A stretch of DNA of 7,660 nucleotides, taken from IMG/VR virus record IMGVR_UViG_2579778529_000005. One strand, given 5' to 3'. Below, piece after piece: positions 1-7,660 of this stretch. Position 1 is the first letter of the stretch; every line of letters begins with the position of its first letter. This DNA is from a virus (Duplodnaviria; Heunggongvirae; Uroviricota; Caudoviricetes). Below the pieces are notes generated by a model that saw nothing but the letters and a program-made list of their open reading frames with translations, made no database searches and was not told the DNA's origin. The translations under genes were made by a program, and so were the position numbers.

Positions 1-893
1 TGTTTGCGCATTGATGCCGAGATACGCTTCCAGTCTTCGCGGTCGTTGTCGATAACTTCTTTTTTTGCCCAGCGATGGATGCTGCCGTCAATGTTTCCGG
101 CATCCACATCACCAGGCCAGAGAGCGTAGGCCAGTTCGTCATCCAGTGTTTTCCATGTCTGCTTGTATTCGCGATGAGTGGCAGCAATGACCGGGCTGAT
201 TTTTCCTGTTGAATTTTCAGTGTACTGTTGATTGGCTCTGGCGCGGGCGAGATCAACAACAGACGTGTATTTTCCGGTTTCCTTGCGTTCACCTTCGCGA
301 CGTTTTTTCCAGATGCGCATCTCTGCCTGAATTTCGGGCCATTTAGCACCAGGAATACATTTATGCTTAACCCACCCAATGGCGTGCAACTTAAGCTCCG
401 GATACATGGCGTTAACTTCTGGCATTTTCATCAACGCTTCAACGATATGTCCGTCGAATGTTGCCATGTCTTCCTGCAACAATTCCTGTGCGCTAATAAC
501 CATATCAACGGTGATGTTTTCACATGTGTCGAACTTAACCATGACAGCGTTCTGTACTTCAGGGGCCAGCTTGTCAAAAGTGACGTTCATCGGATCGGAT
601 TCAGTCTCAACCGGGACAAAAGAAGCAGACTCCTCATCCCAGCGGTTTTCCTGCATATATTCAGCATCCCATGAATCGAGGGCAGGGCGGGGTATGCCAG
701 GTTTATCCTCGCAGACAATAAATTTATAAGCGCAGTCCTGAGCAGCCGGATAATGTTCCAGGAATTGCCAGTGAAATTTTGCTCGAGCACGGCGTTCGTC
801 GCCAGCTTCAATGGCTGTGGCTACAGCCACAGCGCCTTCTTCCCTTGTTGCCAGTTCGTCAGGAATAGCGGCGCAAATAAAGACTTTACTCAT
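1..893 (-). CDS. Prophage protein of unknown function at the ydfE position (downstream of ydfD); N-terminal 297 codons present, C-terminus lies beyond the left window edge
   Basis: Hand translation of the minus strand from ATG at 893 (plus 'cat' 891-893) gives an open frame with no stop down to position 1 (MSKVFICAAIPDELATREEGAVAVATAIEAGDERRARAKFHWQFLEHYPAAQDC...). GAGG-containing RBS about 10 nt upstream. Absent from the supplied ORF track, presumably because it is open at the window edge. Same strand and order as the dicB operon. Confidence 0.75.
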   Translation of the reverse strand, partial: MSKVFICAAIPDELATREEGAVAVATAIEAGDERRARAKFHWQFLEHYPAAQDCAYKFIVCEDKPGIPRPALDSWDAEYMQENRWDEESASFVPVETESDPMNVTFDKLAPEVQNAVMVKFDTCENITVDMVISAQELLQEDMATFDGHIVEALMKMPEVNAMYPELKLHAIGWVKHKCIPGAKWPEIQAEMRIWKKRREGERKETGKYTSVVDLARARANQQYTENSTGKISPVIAATHREYKQTWKTLDDELAYALWPGDVDAGNIDGSIHRWAKKEVIDNDREDWKRISASMRK

Positions 894-986
894 TTTGTTT
901 TAACCTCATGACAGATTTAAGGATGAACAAATCCCTGCCATTGCTGGCATATAAGAATGAAACCGGATATTTATTACGGAACTGTT

Positions 987-1178
987 TTAAAGACCTGCCG
1001 GGATTTCGATATTATCCTGGTGAATAACTTTATCGACCGGGTAACAGTTACCGGGAATTTTCTGTTCGGTTGCTGCAGTCATACACTCCTGCATTGTCCT
1101 GTGAACACTGACTGCAATATCAACTGGCTCTCCGGAAACAAGAAAAACTGTCAGAACAAGCGCAAATGCTGAATTCAT
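987..1178 (-). CDS. ydfD: YdfD, 63-aa Qin-prophage small protein (reported lysis-inducing protein)
   Basis: Internal ATG at 1178 of track ORF 987..1232 gives MNSAFALVLTVFLVSGEPVDIAVSVHRTMQECMTAATEQKIPGNCYPVDKVIHQDNIEIPAGL, which I recall as E. coli K-12 YdfD. Its start overlaps the dicB stop (ATGA), as expected for coupled operon genes. Confidence 0.85.
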   Translation of the reverse strand: MNSAFALVLTVFLVSGEPVDIAVSVHRTMQECMTAATEQKIPGNCYPVDKVIHQDNIEIPAGL

Positions 1179-1363
1179 TGTGCACATCCTTTTGGCATCA
1201 GACGTAAACGAGCCAGCATTGAAACAATGCATATTTTATTTAATAGCTCCCGTTCTTGTTTTCTCTTGTTAATGGCATCTTCAGTAAATACAGGGTTACT
1301 GATAGTGACACCAATTTCAAAACAACCTTCAGACGTATTAACGTTTGGTAATAACGTTTTCAT
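1175..1363 (-). CDS. dicB: DicB, 62-aa cell-division inhibitor (MinC-interacting), translated from an in-phase internal start
   Basis: Internal ATG at 1363 of track ORF 1175..1468 gives MKTLLPNVNTSEGCFEIGVTISNPVFTEDAINKRKQERELLNKICIVSMLARLRLMPKGCAQ, matching my recollection of DicB. GAGGA RBS 8-12 nt upstream. The longer upstream frame fits the published in-phase internal start. Confidence 0.9.
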   Translation of the reverse strand: MKTLLPNVNTSEGCFEIGVTISNPVFTEDAINKRKQERELLNKICIVSMLARLRLMPKGCAQ

Positions 1364-1530
1364 TATCGCGTCCTCAACAATGAATTTTGTGATGCAGTGC
1401 CTGGTGCCTCCAGGTGACGTTAACCAGTTAACAATTAACGCCGGATACAGAGAATCCACCCATAACACTGTTTTTGGTTTTAACTGTTCCGCGTGCGCTT
1501 AGCCGCATTCACCGCATCACAAAATTCACT

Positions 1531-1575
1531 TTAAAAAGGGCGGCAGAGCAGTCACGGAGTAAAACTGATACCGCC
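1531..1575 (-). terminator. Rho-independent terminator forming the 3' end of DicF
   Basis: GC-rich stem GGCGG...CCGCC inside the 3' half of DicF, immediately followed by a T-run on the minus strand (plus-strand A-run 1533..1537). Confidence 0.7.
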
Positions 1576-1590
1576 AAACGTCACCAGAAA
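1538..1590 (-). ncRNA. dicF: DicF small regulatory RNA (53 nt; Hfq-dependent, targets ftsZ and other mRNAs)
   Basis: Reverse complement of 1538..1590 reads TTTCTGGTGACGTTTGGCGGTATCAGTTTTACTCCGTGACTGCTCTGCCGCCC, the DicF sequence as I remember it, followed by a U-run (plus 1531..1537 'ttaaaaa'). Confidence 0.85.
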
Positions 1591-1923
1591 ATTGATAACA
1601 GAGGGCGTTGCAGCGGGGTTGTCACTTAAGCGTATGGTCAACCTGACAACCCGGTGTCCTCAACGGGGAAGGAATAACCCCGCCATACTTACCGCCGCGC
1701 CATTTCGCGGGTTGCCACAACCGGAAGCGCACGGTCGACGAAAATTTAACGACAGGCTATCTATGAACCAGCTACCTCGCCGTGCGCTTTCGCGTTATGG
1801 TCTGACTTTTCAGGGAAATATCCTTTCAGTAAACTGTCAGTGCCGGATGTTCACCCGTGTCCGGCGCACGCACTCCACCTCACCCGTGGAGAACTCCTTA
1901 ATTACCAACCCTCAGGAGGGTGA

Positions 1924-2157
1924 ATGTTAAAATCAACTCTTATTGCTAAATGCCTTTATCAAAATCGCATGGTAAGCAGCATTTCAATAGGCGAGTCTGC
2001 AGTTAAAAGTATTTTCGAAGAGTACTTCCCCGGGCATGATTTTAATAAATGGAATACCAAATTACCGCCAGCAGTTTCAACGCGTATTCTGAAAGCAACT
2101 GAAAGAGCAAGTACAATTCGCGTTAACTATTTCATTAAAGATTTGTGGGATCTTTGA
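1924..2157 (+). CDS. Hypothetical 77-aa protein encoded opposite to the dicB operon; no recognisable domain
   Basis: ATG at 1924 preceded by a perfect AGGAGG (1914..1919) at 4-nt spacing. AT-rich coding sequence follows a GC-rich structured region. The 3' end overlaps the 3' end of the 135-aa gene by 23 bp. No homolog recognised. Confidence 0.5.
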   Translation: MLKSTLIAKCLYQNRMVSSISIGESAVKSIFEEYFPGHDFNKWNTKLPPAVSTRILKATERASTIRVNYFIKDLWDL

Positions 2158-2542
2158 TATCCACAGAGCCTAAAGTATGTGCATATGGATGTGCTATTGT
2201 GCGCCCTCGCAGATTTGCATCATTTTCTAAATTCACTGAACGAAACAGGGCATCAACAAGGCTCTGTACAATGCAAAGGCAATCGAAGACTGTCGCTGTT
2301 TCTGTTTTGATTGATGAAAGAACATGGCCATTCACGCAAACAGAAATTACCCGTTCATTAACATCGCTTTCCTGCTTTTGATTATCAGAACCATATAGCC
2401 CAGAAAAAGCATTGCGCACATTACGAACCATATTATCGATGGTTTCTTTTTTGGTGTATGCCGGGTCAATTTTCACCAGACTATCACCGAGAGTCGTTGC
2501 AGCAATTGTCTGGATTTCTTTTGGTAAATCTTTAAATTCCAT
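2135..2542 (-). CDS. Hypothetical 135-aa soluble protein, extra gene in the dicB operon between ydfC and dicF; function unknown
   Basis: ATG at 2542 with GAGG RBS, starting 22 bp downstream of the ydfC stop on the same strand. Intact 135-codon frame ending TAA at 2135..2137. I do not recognise the protein (MEFKDLPKEIQTIAATTLGDSLVKIDPAYTKKETIDNMVRNVRNAFSGLYGSDNQ...). Confidence 0.65.
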   Translation of the reverse strand: MEFKDLPKEIQTIAATTLGDSLVKIDPAYTKKETIDNMVRNVRNAFSGLYGSDNQKQESDVNERVISVCVNGHVLSSIKTETATVFDCLCIVQSLVDALFRSVNLENDANLRGRTIAHPYAHTLGSVDIKDPTNL

Positions 2543-2564
2543 TATTAGCCTCGTTGGTTAGCTA

Positions 2565-2783
2565 TTAACGTGGGTATGTAATCATTCTGGCAATGCTTAA
2601 TGCCGCTGCTTTTTCCAGATTGGTGATATCCTGCTCCAGAGCGGACAGATTTTCAGCCTGCTTAGCCCTGGCTTCATTAGCCCATTTCAGATCCTGCGCT
2701 GCATTAATTTTCTGGCGCATCCACTCATAAAGTTCATCATCGGTATAGTCTGGCGCGATTATGACGGGTTCTCGTTTCTGCAT
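2565..2783 (-). CDS. ydfC: YdfC, 72-aa Qin-prophage protein of unknown function
   Basis: MQKREPVIIAPDYTDDELYEWMRQKINAAQDLKWANEARAKQAENLSALEQDITNLEKAAALSIARMITYPR matches my recollection of K-12 YdfC. GAGGAA RBS 6 nt upstream of ATG at 2783. Confidence 0.85.
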   Translation of the reverse strand: MQKREPVIIAPDYTDDELYEWMRQKINAAQDLKWANEARAKQAENLSALEQDITNLEKAAALSIARMITYPR

Positions 2784-2812
2784 ACTGATTCCTCGCGGTG
2801 CTGTTTCGCTTA

Positions 2813-2941
2813 TCAGCCGTTAGATTTTGCCGAGCTGGAAAGCGCCTGTTTAAACTCACTGAAGCTGAGAGCTTCTTCGCCTTCGGCAAGGTCTTCGAAG
2901 TATTCTTCGTAAGCCTTTTCCATGATTGTGTCGAAATCCAT
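2813..2941 (-). CDS. ydfB: YdfB, 42-aa Qin-prophage small protein
   Basis: Not in the ORF track (too short). Hand translation of the minus strand from ATG 2941 gives MDFDTIMEKAYEEYFEDLAEGEEALSFSEFKQALSSSAKSNG then TGA (plus 2813..2815). The ydfA stop sits 1 nt before this ATG (TGATATG on the minus strand). Confidence 0.85.
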   Translation of the reverse strand: MDFDTIMEKAYEEYFEDLAEGEEALSFSEFKQALSSSAKSNG

Positions 2942-2942
2942 A

Positions 2943-3098
2943 TCACTCACCTGAGTTTCTTTCCAGCCAGCGACGGGCACCATTTTCGGTTTTAAACGTT
3001 TTGCTTTTGGTATACGTCATTGCGGTGAACGTGCCGTCCTGGTTTGGAAACACGCCGTACACCAGAGATTCGTTGTTGCCAAGATCGATAGTATCCAT
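2943..3098 (-). CDS. ydfA: YdfA, 51-aa Qin-prophage small protein (first gene of the dicB operon)
   Basis: Internal ATG at 3098 of track ORF 2943..3176 gives MDTIDLGNNESLVYGVFPNQDGTFTAMTYTKSKTFKTENGARRWLERNSGE. GAGG RBS 5 nt upstream. The longer track ORF starts with TTG at 3176 and would run through the operator region. Confidence 0.8.
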   Translation of the reverse strand: MDTIDLGNNESLVYGVFPNQDGTFTAMTYTKSKTFKTENGARRWLERNSGE

Positions 3099-3264
3099 GC
3101 TGACCTCATTTCCCCTTAACGCTGGGGTAGCGGAACTGTTTGCTGAGAACACCGTGCGGTGTGTTGATGCAAACAAGGTTAGCCATGACTAACATATCGG
3201 TCAAGTGATATTGTATGCTATAGCTAACATAATTGATGTGGTAAAAGATAACTCATTGATGATG
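3099..3264 (-). promoter_or_regulatory. PdicB promoter/operator region between dicA and ydfA, with DicA-operator-like palindrome GTTAGCCATGACTAAC (3178..3193)
   Basis: Intergenic on the operon strand. Contains GTTAG-N5-ACTAAC at 3178..3193 and a TTAGCTATAGCATA-like motif on the minus strand near 3215..3228, both recurring in the dicA-dicC intergenic region. Confidence 0.55.
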
Positions 3265-3672
3265 TTATCTTTTATTTGTCCGCTGACGGGCTTTTAGTAA
3301 TTCTTCAAAGAGTTTATTGAAGTTTTTTACTCGAGCTCGCATTTCGGCGAGCTGGGTATCCTGTTCTGATTCTGGCAGTGCATTAAACAGCTCAAGGAGC
3401 TCTAGTTCTTTGGGGGATAAGGCAACTGGCTTCTCAACAGGTGGTGTTGGTTGCTTGTCTTCATCGCCAAATAGAATCCATGTTGGTGAGCATTGCAATA
3501 CTTTGCTGAGGGCAAAAAGGTTCTTCCCTGTAGGTTCACTATCACCCCGTTCCCATTGTGATACAGACACATGGGAGATTTTCAGGGCTTTAGCAAGAGA
3601 CCTTTGGGTGTGTTTGAGGTTTTTCCGACGATACCTGATGCGTTCGCCGATAGTTAAATTTTTTGTTTCCAT
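3265..3672 (-). CDS. dicA: DicA, 135-aa XRE-family HTH repressor (cI/c2-like immunity repressor of the dicB operon)
   Basis: METKNLTIGERIRYRRKNLKHTQRSLAKALKISHVSVSQWERGDSEPTGKNLFALSKVLQCSPTWILFGDED... has an N-terminal HTH (QRSLAKALKISHVSVSQWERG) and matches K-12 DicA as I recall it. Divergent from dicC. Confidence 0.92.
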   Translation of the reverse strand: METKNLTIGERIRYRRKNLKHTQRSLAKALKISHVSVSQWERGDSEPTGKNLFALSKVLQCSPTWILFGDEDKQPTPPVEKPVALSPKELELLELFNALPESEQDTQLAEMRARVKNFNKLFEELLKARQRTNKR

Positions 3673-3755
3673 AGTTAGCTAATGCTAAATCGTATTGACT
3701 ATGTTTTTGTTAACATCTATCTTGTTAGTTATGACTAACAATAAAGGTGTTTTAA
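3673..3755. promoter_or_regulatory. Divergent dicA/dicC promoter-operator region: dicC promoter (-35 TTGACT 3695..3700, 17-bp spacer, -10 TATCTT 3718..3723) and operator palindrome TTGTTAGTtatgACTAACAA (3722..3741)
   Basis: Perfect 8-bp inverted arms with a 4-bp spacer overlapping the -10/+1 of the dicC promoter. Additional TTAGCTAATGCTAA motif at 3675..3688 just upstream of the dicA start. Confidence 0.6.
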
Positions 3756-3986
3756 ATGCTTAAAACTGACGCTCTTTTGTATTTCGGTTCAAAAACAAAA
3801 CTTGCACAAGCAGCAGGTATTCGTTTGGCTTCGCTTTATAGCTGGAAAGGGGATTTAGTTCCCGAAGGTCGCGCGATGCGTCTACAGGAGGCATCTGGCG
3901 GGGAGCTTCAGTATGATCCCAAAGTTTATGATGAATATCGTAAGACGAAGCGGGCGGGGCGGTTGAACAATGAAAATCACTCCTGA
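3756..3986 (+). CDS. dicC: DicC, 76-aa Cro-like regulator
   Basis: MLKTDALLYFGSKTKLAQAAGIRLASLYSWKGDLVPEGRAMRLQEASGGELQYDPKVYDEYRKTKRAGRLNNENHS matches K-12 DicC as I recall it. AAGGTG RBS. Divergent from dicA. Confidence 0.9.
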   Translation: MLKTDALLYFGSKTKLAQAAGIRLASLYSWKGDLVPEGRAMRLQEASGGELQYDPKVYDEYRKTKRAGRLNNENHS

Positions 3987-4491
3987 ACAGGCTCGTGAGG
4001 CTCTGGATGCCTGGATATGTCGACCAGGAATGACACAGGAGCAGGCGACGATATTAATCACTGAAGCATTCTGGGCTTTGAAAGAGCGCCCGAACATCGA
4101 TGTTCAGCGTGTCACATATGAAGGTGGCGCGATTGATCAGCGAGCGCTTGGCGTTAATCGAGTGAAGATATTTGAACGCTGGAAGGCTATCGACACCAGG
4201 GATAAGCGTGAAAAGTTCACGGCGCTAGTGCCTGCAATTATGGAGGCTATCCGGATTAATGATTTCAGGTTGTATCGTGAAATTACTGACGGAAAAAGCA
4301 TCACGTGCATGATCGCCGGGTTAAACAAAGAATATGGCGATGTGGTGGAGTCCGGACTGCTTTTTGCTGATCCTGCCGTAGTGGATCGTGAAACTGACGA
4401 ACTTATAGAAAAAGCAATTGCTTTCAAACTTGCGTATCGACAGCAATACCAACAAAAAGCTGGATGGAATTATGAGCCTTCTTTTTGCTGA
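3970..4491 (+). CDS. Hypothetical 173-aa phage protein at the position of a cII/YdaT-type early regulator (immediately after the cro-like gene); function not established
   Basis: ATG at 3970 overlaps the dicC 3' end by 17 nt, suggesting translational coupling. Frame is open for 173 codons. No recognisable motif; the assignment is positional only. Confidence 0.6.
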   Translation: MKITPEQAREALDAWICRPGMTQEQATILITEAFWALKERPNIDVQRVTYEGGAIDQRALGVNRVKIFERWKAIDTRDKREKFTALVPAIMEAIRINDFRLYREITDGKSITCMIAGLNKEYGDVVESGLLFADPAVVDRETDELIEKAIAFKLAYRQQYQQKAGWNYEPSFC

Positions 4492-5477: not shown

Positions 5478-5900
5478 GTGGCAAAAGTTTTTACACAAGA
5501 AGAGCGGGAAAAAATTAAATGGCAGGTGGTGGAACTCGTGCGCCAGAGCGGCCGTGAGACGTTACGGCAACTGGAAGCTAAAACAGGTGCGACTAGATAT
5601 CTGATGAGCGTTCTTGCCAGAGAGCTGGTAGCCAGTGGCGATGTATACAACTCCGGCTACGGGTTATTCCCCTCTGAACAGGCGCGTAAGGACTGGCAAA
5701 ACGCCCGCAAAAAACTCTCGAGGGCAAAGGTGAAGAAACCTGCTGTGGTTGATCCGGACCTTATCTGGTCATCACCTGACGGAGAAATACGTCGCTACGA
5801 CAGTCGCCTAAACATAATCTGTCGCGAGTGCCGGAAGAGCGAAGTTATGCAGCGCATACTGGCTTTCTATCAGGGTAATTTTCAGGACGTGGCGCAGTGA
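5478..5900 (+). CDS. Hypothetical 140-aa phage protein (GTG start), translationally coupled to the downstream methyltransferase-like ORF
   Basis: GTG at 5478 preceded by AAGGGGGA RBS at about 5-nt spacing. Basic protein with a CRECRK motif. Its stop overlaps the next start (GTGA at 5897..5900). Confidence 0.6.
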   Translation: MAKVFTQEEREKIKWQVVELVRQSGRETLRQLEAKTGATRYLMSVLARELVASGDVYNSGYGLFPSEQARKDWQNARKKLSRAKVKKPAVVDPDLIWSSPDGEIRRYDSRLNIICRECRKSEVMQRILAFYQGNFQDVAQ

Positions 5901-6253
5901 GTGCACCGGCAACCATTCTTGATATGTGCTGTGGCAGCCGCATGTTCTGGTTCGATAAGTCTGACGAACGGGCGATATTCAGCGATATCAGAAAAGAAGG
6001 ATACACATTACGCAATGGGAGACGCTTGATTATCAGCCCTGACATTATCGCAGATTTTCGTGCATTATCATTTGCAGACGCATCTTTTTCGATGGTTGTA
6101 TTAGACCCTCCGCATCTTGAGAGTGTTGGTGATAACGCCTGGATGGGAAAGAAATATGGACGGCTGAATAAAGATGCCTGGCGTGATGATTCGCGACAGA
6201 GATTTAAAGAAGCCTTTCGGGTGTTGAGGCCGCACGGCGTTCTGATTTTTTAA
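5897..6253 (+). CDS. SAM-dependent methyltransferase-like protein, 118 aa, possibly C-terminally truncated (candidate pseudogene)
   Basis: Motif I-like LDMCCGS near the N-terminus and motif IV-like VVLDPPH about 60 residues later (the D/N-PP-Y/F/H signature of amino-methyltransferases), then RVLRPHGVLIF. The frame stops at TAA 6251..6253 but stays open for about 30 more codons (WNETQIPVSQILALTDRKPVICQRTGKKR) before the next stop. IS3 is inserted about 150 bp downstream. Confidence 0.5.
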   Translation: MSAPATILDMCCGSRMFWFDKSDERAIFSDIRKEGYTLRNGRRLIISPDIIADFRALSFADASFSMVVLDPPHLESVGDNAWMGKKYGRLNKDAWRDDSRQRFKEAFRVLRPHGVLIF

Positions 6254-6402: not shown

Positions 6403-6441
6403 TGATCCTACCCACGTAATATGGACACAGGCCTAAGCGAG
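6403..6441. repeat. IS3 terminal inverted repeat (right end, IRR)
   Basis: Imperfect inverted match to the terminal 39 bp at 7622..7660 (TGATCYTACCCA...TGGACAC...CTAAG). Confidence 0.85.
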
Positions 6442-7299
6442 GTTCTGGTTTTCAAATTGTTCCGGACTGAGGCCGCCACACCAACTGTGCCGCCGCCACC
6501 GATTGTAATCACATTCGATATAATTAAACACCGTTGCCCGCATTATTTCCCGGCTGATAAAGTGTTCTCCATGGATACATTCCACTTTCAGCGAATGAAA
6601 GAAGCTTTCCACGCAGGCATTATCGTAGCAGCAACCTTTTGCGCTCATACTTCCACGCAGATTATGCCGCTTCAGTTGCGCCTGATAATCTGCTGAACAG
6701 TACTGGCCTCCACGGTCCGTGTGAACGATAACGTTCCGGGGCCTCTTACGCCGCCACAGCGCCATCTGCAGGGCATCGCAGGCCAGTTGCGCCGTCATGC
6801 GTGGCGACATTGACCAGCCAATAACGGCACGTGACCACAGGTCAATGACCACTGCCAGATACAGCCAGCCTTCATCTGTACGTAAGTACGTGATGTCTCC
6901 TGCCCACTTCTGGTTCGGGCCACTGGCGTAAAAATCCTGCTCCAACAGATTTTCTGACACAGGCAGGCCGTGTGCGCGGTAGCTGACCGGGCTGAACTTC
7001 CGGGAGGCCTTTGCCCTCAGTCCCTGACGGCGCAGGCTTGCCGCCACGGTTTTTACGTTAAAGGGGTAACCCTGAGCACGCAGTTCATCCGTCAGGCGTG
7101 GGGCACCGTAACGCTGTTTTGACCGGGTAAAAGCCGCGAGGACAACGCTGTCGCAGTGTTGGCGGAACTGCTGACGCGTGCTTATCCTTGTCCGCCGCTG
7201 ACACCACGTATACCAGCCGCTGCGGGCCACCCGGAGCACGCGGCACATTGCTTTGATGCTGAACTCAGCCTGATGTTTTTCAATAAAGACATACTTCAT
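6433..7299 (-). CDS. insF: IS3 transposase OrfB (InsF), DDE integrase-type catalytic domain, 288 aa
   Basis: [36 protein letters not shown]... matches IS3 InsF as I recall it. Normally expressed as an OrfAB fusion by -1 frameshifting. Confidence 0.95.
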
Positions 7300-7595
7300 T
7301 TCAGGCGCTTCGCGAAGTATGTCGCGGCCTTTTGGAGGATAGCCAGCTCTTCATCCCGTTCTGCCAGCTGGCGTTTGAGACGTGCAATCTCGGTAGACAT
7401 CTCCAGTTCACGTTCAGAAGACGTCTGCTGATTTTGCTGTTTACTGCGCCAGTTGTAGAGCTGTGATTCATACAGGCTGAGTTCACGGGCTGCGGCAGTA
7501 ACACCGATGCGTTCAGCAAGCTTCAGGGCTTCACTGCGAAATTCAGGCGAATGCTGTTTACGGGGTTTTTTACTGGTTGATACTGTTTTTGTCAT
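7296..7595 (-). CDS. insE: IS3 transposase OrfA (InsE), HTH DNA-binding protein, 99 aa
   Basis: [54 protein letters not shown]... The track ORF carries a 3-codon N-terminal extension (MTHMTKTV); the 99-aa form is the known product. Confidence 0.9.
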
Positions 7596-7621
7596 GTGAG
7601 TCACCTCTGACTGAGAGTTTA

Positions 7622-7660
7622 CTCACTTAGCCGCGTGTCCACTATTGCTGGGTAAGATCA
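7622..7660. repeat. IS3 terminal inverted repeat (left end, IRL)
   Basis: Reverse complement reads TGATCTTACCCAGCAATAGTGGACACGCGGCTAAGTGAG. Flanking target duplication cannot be assessed because the window ends here. Confidence 0.85.

Follow-up and report, generated by a model that had tools for sequence, protein, structure and literature searches.

A K-12-like dicF-dicB-ydfD module, intact in sequence, in a Qin-type prophage segment with an upstream cassette and a predicted structured leader before dicB

The window, by which we mean the whole 7,660-nt stretch of DNA that was analyzed, carries the small RNA DicF, the cell-division inhibitor gene dicB and the lysis gene ydfD, all encoded on the minus strand (Table 1). 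The order on that strand is ydfC, a 634-bp cassette, a leader, dicF and dicB, with DicF embedded in the dicB operon. The dicF-dicB-ydfD module has been under study since the 1980s; it is an ordinary, well-known prophage module, here essentially the K-12 allele, and neither novel nor a surprise to the specialist. An earlier note on this DNA had placed the module at 1175-1590 without giving a strand. DicF and dicB do lie within that interval, together with a 174-nt dicF-dicB spacer on which the note did not comment, but only 4 bases of ydfD fall inside it and the rest of that gene lies outside.

Table 1. Features of the window, with positions, strands and the basis of each assignment.
Feature	Position	Strand	Basis and remarks
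Exonuclease gene (ydfE/exoVIII-like), N-terminal 297 codons	1..893	-	Downstream of ydfD; phrog_2082, E 1e-227; runs off the window
ydfD, lysis protein, 63 aa	987..1178	-	PF07358; start overlaps dicB stop (ATGA, 1175-1178)
dicB, cell-division inhibitor, 62 aa	1175..1363	-	Protein identical to K-12; PF05358; NF049927
dicF-dicB spacer, 174 nt, putative STnc100-like structured leader	1364..1537	-	Rfam match below threshold, MFE, conservation
dicB Shine-Dalgarno, GAGGA	1371..1375	-	7 nt upstream of ATG; pairs with the U-run in the predicted structure
U-run of the DicF Rho-independent terminator	1533..1537	-	Sequence; predicted pairing with dicB Shine-Dalgarno in read-through RNA (MFE)
DicF small RNA	1538..1590	-	53 nt as annotated in K-12 b1574; terminator hairpin ~1539-1575
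Long hairpin upstream of DicF	1714..1800	-	MFE fold of window and K-12 leaders; 3' arm bears the expected 5' end of the 190-nt RNase III-generated precursor
634-bp cassette	1911..2544		Absent from K-12 Qin and phage PhiR42_1; BLAST break points; begins 20 nt past the ydfC stop
ORF77, putative coding	1924..2157	+	Convergent with ORF135, 23-bp overlap; phrog_10348, E 1e-47; called by PGAP
ORF135	2135..2542	-	Co-oriented with the operon, own ribosome-binding site; phrog_1363, E 2e-46
ydfC (2565-2783), ydfB (2813-2941), ydfA (2943-3098)	2565..3098	-	Promoter-proximal dicBF operon genes
dicA-ydfA spacer with dicBp and operator-like palindromes (3178-3194, 3213-3229)	3099..3264	-	Repeats; dicBp location after PMC10448788
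dicA, repressor of dicBp (CI analogue), 135 aa	3265..3672	-	Identical to K-12; NF007257, 234 bits
dicC, Cro analogue, 76 aa	3756..3986	+	Identical to K-12; NF007282, 159.5 bits
IS3 copy, complete, 1258 bp	6403-7660	-	orfA 7296-7604, orfB 6433-7299; window ends exactly at the IS end

The Rfam DicF model (RF00039) matches at 1538-1589 on the minus strand over its entire length (1-52 of 52), with 76.7 bits against a gathering score of 48 and an E value of 4e-16. The 53-nt K-12 dicF (b1574 of MG1655, our locus L001) maps to window positions 1590..1538 and is 100% identical, including the TTTTT run at 1533-1537 and the flanks; the terminator, as in K-12, consists of a hairpin with a folding energy of -15.9 kcal/mol and a UUUUU run behind it. 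The claim that the RNA and its terminator are fully present is thus borne out by a match over the whole model and by complete identity. DicF has no promoter of its own and is excised from the dicBp transcript by RNase III, which yields a 190-nt species, and by RNase E, which yields the 53-nt species; an internal promoter was not found in the published work, and DicF depends on dicBp (PMC10448788). The 320 nt upstream of dicF are K-12-like, and the stretch of the 190-nt precursor has zero differences from K-12. The sole difference within the long upstream hairpin is at position 1782, where a U.G pair of K-12 becomes C-G, a change predicted to strengthen a pair in the precursor hairpin. DicF represses translation of ftsZ and also represses manX, xylR and pykA (PMC10448788). 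Against the K-12 ftsZ leader, RNAduplex gave -38.5 kcal/mol, with ACUCCG/CGGAG pairing at the Shine-Dalgarno, and 37 of 500 shuffled DicF sequences were as good. This simple duplex energy test did not separate DicF from the shuffles, and therefore the expected pairing with ftsZ is argued here from the 100% identity to the K-12 DicF that has been tested.

The dicB gene is an open frame of 62 aa and, as had been claimed, intact: the only change from K-12 is one synonymous base, at 1292, and the protein matches its Pfam and NCBIfam profiles over residues 1-62 of 62 (PF05358, 136.8 bits, cut-off 27; NF049927, 132.8 bits, cut-off 100). A longer form beginning at an in-frame GTG (1468) was rejected, as the DicB Pfam profile begins at ATG 1363, the stretch upstream is common to kil and terB leaders, and its element lengths differ by non-multiples of 3. 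The overlap of the ydfD start with the dicB stop is real, as the plus strand reads TCAT at 1175-1178 and hence ATGA on the minus strand. YdfD matches DUF1482 (PF07358) with 92 bits (cut-off 25), both its N- and C-terminal domains are complete, and V6A is its one difference from K-12. This change, in the hydrophobic N-terminus, is conservative and circulates as an allele in other strains; strain CV839-06 carries the identical one. Three plus-strand ORFs (1227-1502, 1474-1629 and 1592-1930) lack Pfam matches and were set aside as artefacts lying antisense to dicB, the leader and dicF. We note that the phage PhiR42_1 record (L002, 5226-5926) annotates plus-strand hypothetical ORFs opposite dicB and dicF and omits dicB, an annotation error that could propagate.

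The control region is likewise close to K-12. YdfA, which has a DUF1391 match, and YdfC are identical to their K-12 counterparts, and YdfB carries G17D. The spacer holding dicBp and its operators has two SNPs relative to K-12, at 3178 and 3210, which count against the main account given below. A repeat family, GTTAGCCATGACTAACA, is common to the dicA-ydfA and dicA-dicC spacers, with 17-nt operator-like repeats at 3178-3194, 3213-3229 and 3724-3740. The SNP at 3178 increases the symmetry of the GTTAG..CTAAC operator-like palindrome and falls within a possible -10 element. The Rem antirepressor (PF27490) lies outside the window, a further point against that account; in the related chromosomal loci L132-L137 it is found ~6 kb right (downstream) of the O gene. 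Taken together, the statement that the module looks functional rather than decayed holds up: there are no frameshifts or stops in it, differences from functional DicF and DicB at key positions were looked for and both proved identical to the studied K-12 alleles, and the alignment to K-12 dicF, dicB and ydfD gave 100% for DicF, 100% for the DicB protein and V6A as the only change in YdfD. It is further supported because DicA, DicC, YdfA and YdfC are identical to K-12 and because the DicF precursor of 190 nt retains its RNase III hairpin.

One departure from K-12 within the operon is the cassette, which is present in 677 of 5426 E. coli genomes, in phage Evi and in PPompW prophages, and which stands upstream of an intact dicF-dicB in at least 646 genomes. 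It changes the stretch from ydfC to dicF from ~340 nt in K-12 to an extra gene plus ~545 nt. Homologues of ORF135 that are 37-39% identical occur in the early regions of Stx phages. Neither ORF135 nor ORF77 has a match in Pfam, NCBIfam, PADLOC or, by sequence search, PDB, and the idea that the two form a defence or toxin-antitoxin pair is therefore unsupported. When the empty site was used as a query, the junction between ydfC and the DicF leader was found to hold inserts of several sizes across strains, and on this sequence comparison it appears to behave as a mosaic slot.

The 174-nt spacer between dicF and dicB may be more than a simple gap. It scores 34.8 bits (E 2.6e-5; window 1331-1540, minus strand) against the Rfam STnc100 family (RF02076), below the gathering threshold of 47, and is therefore given as a resemblance only; its relatives score 33-44 bits. 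The window leader has a minimum free energy of -68.2 kcal/mol (z -5.9), and none of 200 shuffled sequences was as stable. A 28-bp outer helix, formed by 1510-1537 with 1371-1399, is predicted to enclose three hairpins and a hypervariable middle, and it would pair the U-run of the DicF terminator with the dicB Shine-Dalgarno GAGGA. A 72-nt DicF species has been described as an RNase III product of read-through RNA (PMC5069750), and its published 3' end would map to window position 1519, in the middle of this helix. Leader sequence 81-87% identical to that of the window is found in front of kilR in Rac-SA53, of kil in both Stx phage 75/02 and Evi, and of terB in P7. Among 52 distinct IMG/VR copies, two nearly invariant blocks flank the hypervariable middle, and the element lengths vary by non-multiples of three, which argues against coding. 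RNAalifold recovers the closing helix and the three hairpins, with compensatory changes in three pairs, wobble-compatible changes in others and almost none broken; this covariation is modest evidence because block 1 is invariant through how the copies were collected. Among 107 IMG/VR segments, the gene that follows the leader is DicB-like in 78 (70 of these with a full DicF upstream), Kil-like in eight and TerB in one. In locus L006 a DicB-like gene (89% identity) is found with no DicF match at the gathering threshold nor at E values up to 0.01.

These observations suggested to us that the spacer may act in cis as a conserved leader RNA, one related to STnc100/PasD and standing before the toxic cargo (dicB, kil or terB) of lambdoid and P1-like phages, and that its 28-bp helix would both hide the dicB ribosome-binding site by means of the U-run and serve as the RNase III site parting DicF from the dicB mRNA. 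We put this forward tentatively and give it rather less than an even chance; gating of DicB or Kil translation by the leader is a hypothesis drawn from structure prediction and conservation. Were it true, the dosage of DicB would be set post-transcriptionally, by terminator read-through and RNase III. Together with the slot upstream of dicF, the conserved leader before dicB could serve in studies of the way phages set the dosage of toxic early genes.

We consider it very probable that this region represents a dicBF early-left operon segment, intact, from a Qin-type lambdoid prophage, repressed by DicA and working as follows; the activities are assigned because of identity with published K-12 work. 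Leftward transcription of the minus strand from dicBp, upstream of ydfA, would be held off by DicA. Once DicA is relieved, as may happen through spontaneous switching or an antirepressor such as Rem, a single polycistronic RNA would be made that spans ydfA-ydfB-ydfC-(ORF135)-dicF-dicB-ydfD-exonuclease. An RNase III cut in the hairpin at 1714-1800 would give the 190-nt precursor, and RNase E trimming would give the 53-nt DicF, whose 3' end would be set by the intrinsic terminator at 1533-1575. DicF would then pair with the ribosome-binding region of ftsZ and with the manX, xylR and pykA mRNAs, leading to less translation. RNA that reads through the terminator would bear the 174-nt structured leader, followed by dicB and a translationally coupled ydfD. 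DicB is expected to bind MinC and bring it to ZipA at midcell, so that Z rings dissolve, and also to block ManYZ-dependent entry of phage DNA. YdfD would inhibit IspG and lyse dividing cells, with DicB counteracting it.

Each of these activities agrees with the literature, as do the functions that the earlier note had given for DicF, DicB and YdfD (PMC6832061, PMC10448788, PMC8835842). DicB acts with MinC (and ZipA) to block Z rings and ManYZ-dependent phage entry (PMC6832061), and YdfD lyses cells via IspG, a lysis that DicB counteracts (PMC8835842). For the copy in the window, MinC binding and inhibition of the Z ring and of ManYZ by DicB are expected from its identity to the protein that was studied; the other activities of the module and its phenotypes on derepression are likewise inferred from identity with the published K-12 work. 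The presence and integrity of every element, its identity to K-12 and the conservation of the processing structures are direct observations of this analysis, and all sequence elements known to be needed for the module are present and K-12-like. Judged from sequence, the strain most likely has a working, DicA-repressed cassette for division inhibition, phage exclusion and lysis.

Whether the module is confined to decaying prophages bears on how that account should be read. An 801-bp segment around it matches 4663 of 5426 complete E. coli genomes (~86%), 3826 of them at 80% coverage or more, at a median of two and a maximum of nine places per genome. Eight complete phage records carry the whole ydfD-dicB-dicF segment as well, with 95-99.5% identity: Tritos, in which DicF, DicB and YdfD are annotated, HannyBb, PhiR42_1, mEp460_ev081 and four vB_Eco isolates. 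A 2016 paper reported no matches in phage genomes at that time (PMC5069750), a statement that is now outdated. The module is thus borne by phage records deposited as complete genomes and not by cryptic remnants alone, and because it sits in these eight records, the word cryptic, which the earlier note had applied to this prophage, is not established by a 7.7-kb window. One could then argue that the intact module serves a still-inducible temperate phage, in which a PL-type early operon takes over the host for lytic growth in the manner of lambda Kil, and is not a domesticated function of a cryptic prophage. The window is collinear with PhiR42_1 at 99.4-99.7%, its left arm is less decayed than that of K-12 Qin (the O gene, a YdaT-like gene and the N-terminal part of the exonuclease have stayed intact), and in Evi a Kil protein comes after DicF at the corresponding position, all of which speak for such a phage. 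Weighing on the other side are the IS3 copy and a methyltransferase gene that stops at an in-frame TAA; in addition, the closest relatives on chromosomes are prophages at the Qin site, which carry transposase insertions and have the right arm of K-12 Qin (flxA, relBE, hokD, rem). The window ends short of the late genes. We regard an inducible phage as unlikely, though deserving real weight, and this reading is compatible with the main account of a working module.

The two remaining alternatives concern whether the intact genes are expressed and whether their alleles work. Polarity or antisense effects from the cassette are conceivable, as it introduces a longer untranslated and foreign stretch and a convergent ORF. 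In the stronger form of this argument, Rho-dependent polarity or ORF77 antisense transcription would uncouple the intact genes from dicBp, and little DicF or DicB would be made on derepression. The cassette does sit exactly between ydfC and the DicF leader, ORF77 is convergent with an operon on whose promoter DicF depends, and ~545 untranslated nt separate the ORF135 stop from dicF. However, no intrinsic-terminator-like site was found on the operon strand within the cassette, which makes read-through into dicF plausible, and no promoter-like site was found upstream of ORF77, although the promoter scan as a whole performed at chance level (seven sites against 5.3 expected) and was not used as evidence. 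The tail of the cassette is neither C-rich nor G-poor (C 0.19, G 0.19), ORF135 is co-oriented with the operon and has a ribosome-binding site, and the same cassette precedes dicF-dicB in the many genomes counted above and occurs in Evi, where the early genes downstream must be expressed. We consider uncoupling quite improbable. Still harder to credit is that the module is a decaying remnant with a non-functional allele behind its intact look. V6A in YdfD and G17D in YdfB differ from K-12, and full lysis requires an intact YdfD (PMC8835842); yet DicF and DicB are identical to the alleles that have been tested, the reading frames are undamaged, and the YdfD change is conservative, falls in a hydrophobic N-terminus, is shared with other strains and leaves both domains complete. 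We give this last reading hardly any credence, and an intact, DicA-repressed operon segment remains our preferred account.

Several observations concern the surroundings of the module. Related prophages lack the IS3 at this position. In the SAM-methyltransferase ORF (5897-6253), the frame ends at TAA and is then open in the same frame (..LIF*WNETQIP..), so that the gene is probably nonsense-truncated; both RefSeq and PhiR42_1 annotate the same 118-aa form as an intact gene. Prophages at the Qin site that were found through their O protein lacked the cassette. The combination of K-12-type immunity, cassette and IS3 was not found in any complete E. coli genome; 80% or more of the window is covered by only two records, and dicA together with the cassette occurs at only 93% identity, in six genomes. 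The exonuclease gene is an intact 823 aa in related loci and a pseudogene in K-12. In a related prophage (L004, 7635-9774), defence-like genes encoding DUF262 and HEPN-domain proteins lie between a DUF977 gene and IS3, which marks a second variable slot on the right-hand side of the replication genes.

Of the systems to which the locus can be compared, the dicBF operon of K-12 Qin (dicA/dicC - ydfABC - dicF - dicB - ydfD - ydfE) is the closest. It has the same gene order and orientation, 99.4% nucleotide identity over window positions 127-1910 and 2545-4249, identical DicF, DicB, DicA, DicC, YdfA and YdfC, the same 174-nt spacer and the same ATGA overlap. It differs in lacking the 634-bp two-ORF cassette and in having remnants in place of the exonuclease N-terminus, the YdaT-like gene and the O gene that are intact in the window, whereas the window has YdfD V6A and YdfB G17D and adds IS3 to the right. 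The spacer is comparable to STnc100 and PasD (RF02076), which have been described as structurally related prophage RNAs: it aligns to the whole model (1-206) and shares the prophage location, but it scores under the threshold and is here a 5' leader of dicB, not demonstrated as a free-standing sRNA. The Kil-type inhibitors (Rac KilR, Stx-phage Kil and Evi Kil) occupy the same position, in the early-left operon upstream of the exonuclease, and have the same conserved structured leader in front and often a DicF-like RNA too, but they belong to another protein family of ~73-77 aa with no similarity to DicB. In phage Evi (L007, 2227-2679) and Rac-SA53 (L010, 1260-1707), DicF or a DicF-like RNA and the leader are retained and Kil replaces DicB and YdfD. 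This arrangement suggests an interchangeable division-inhibitor cargo behind one RNA module.
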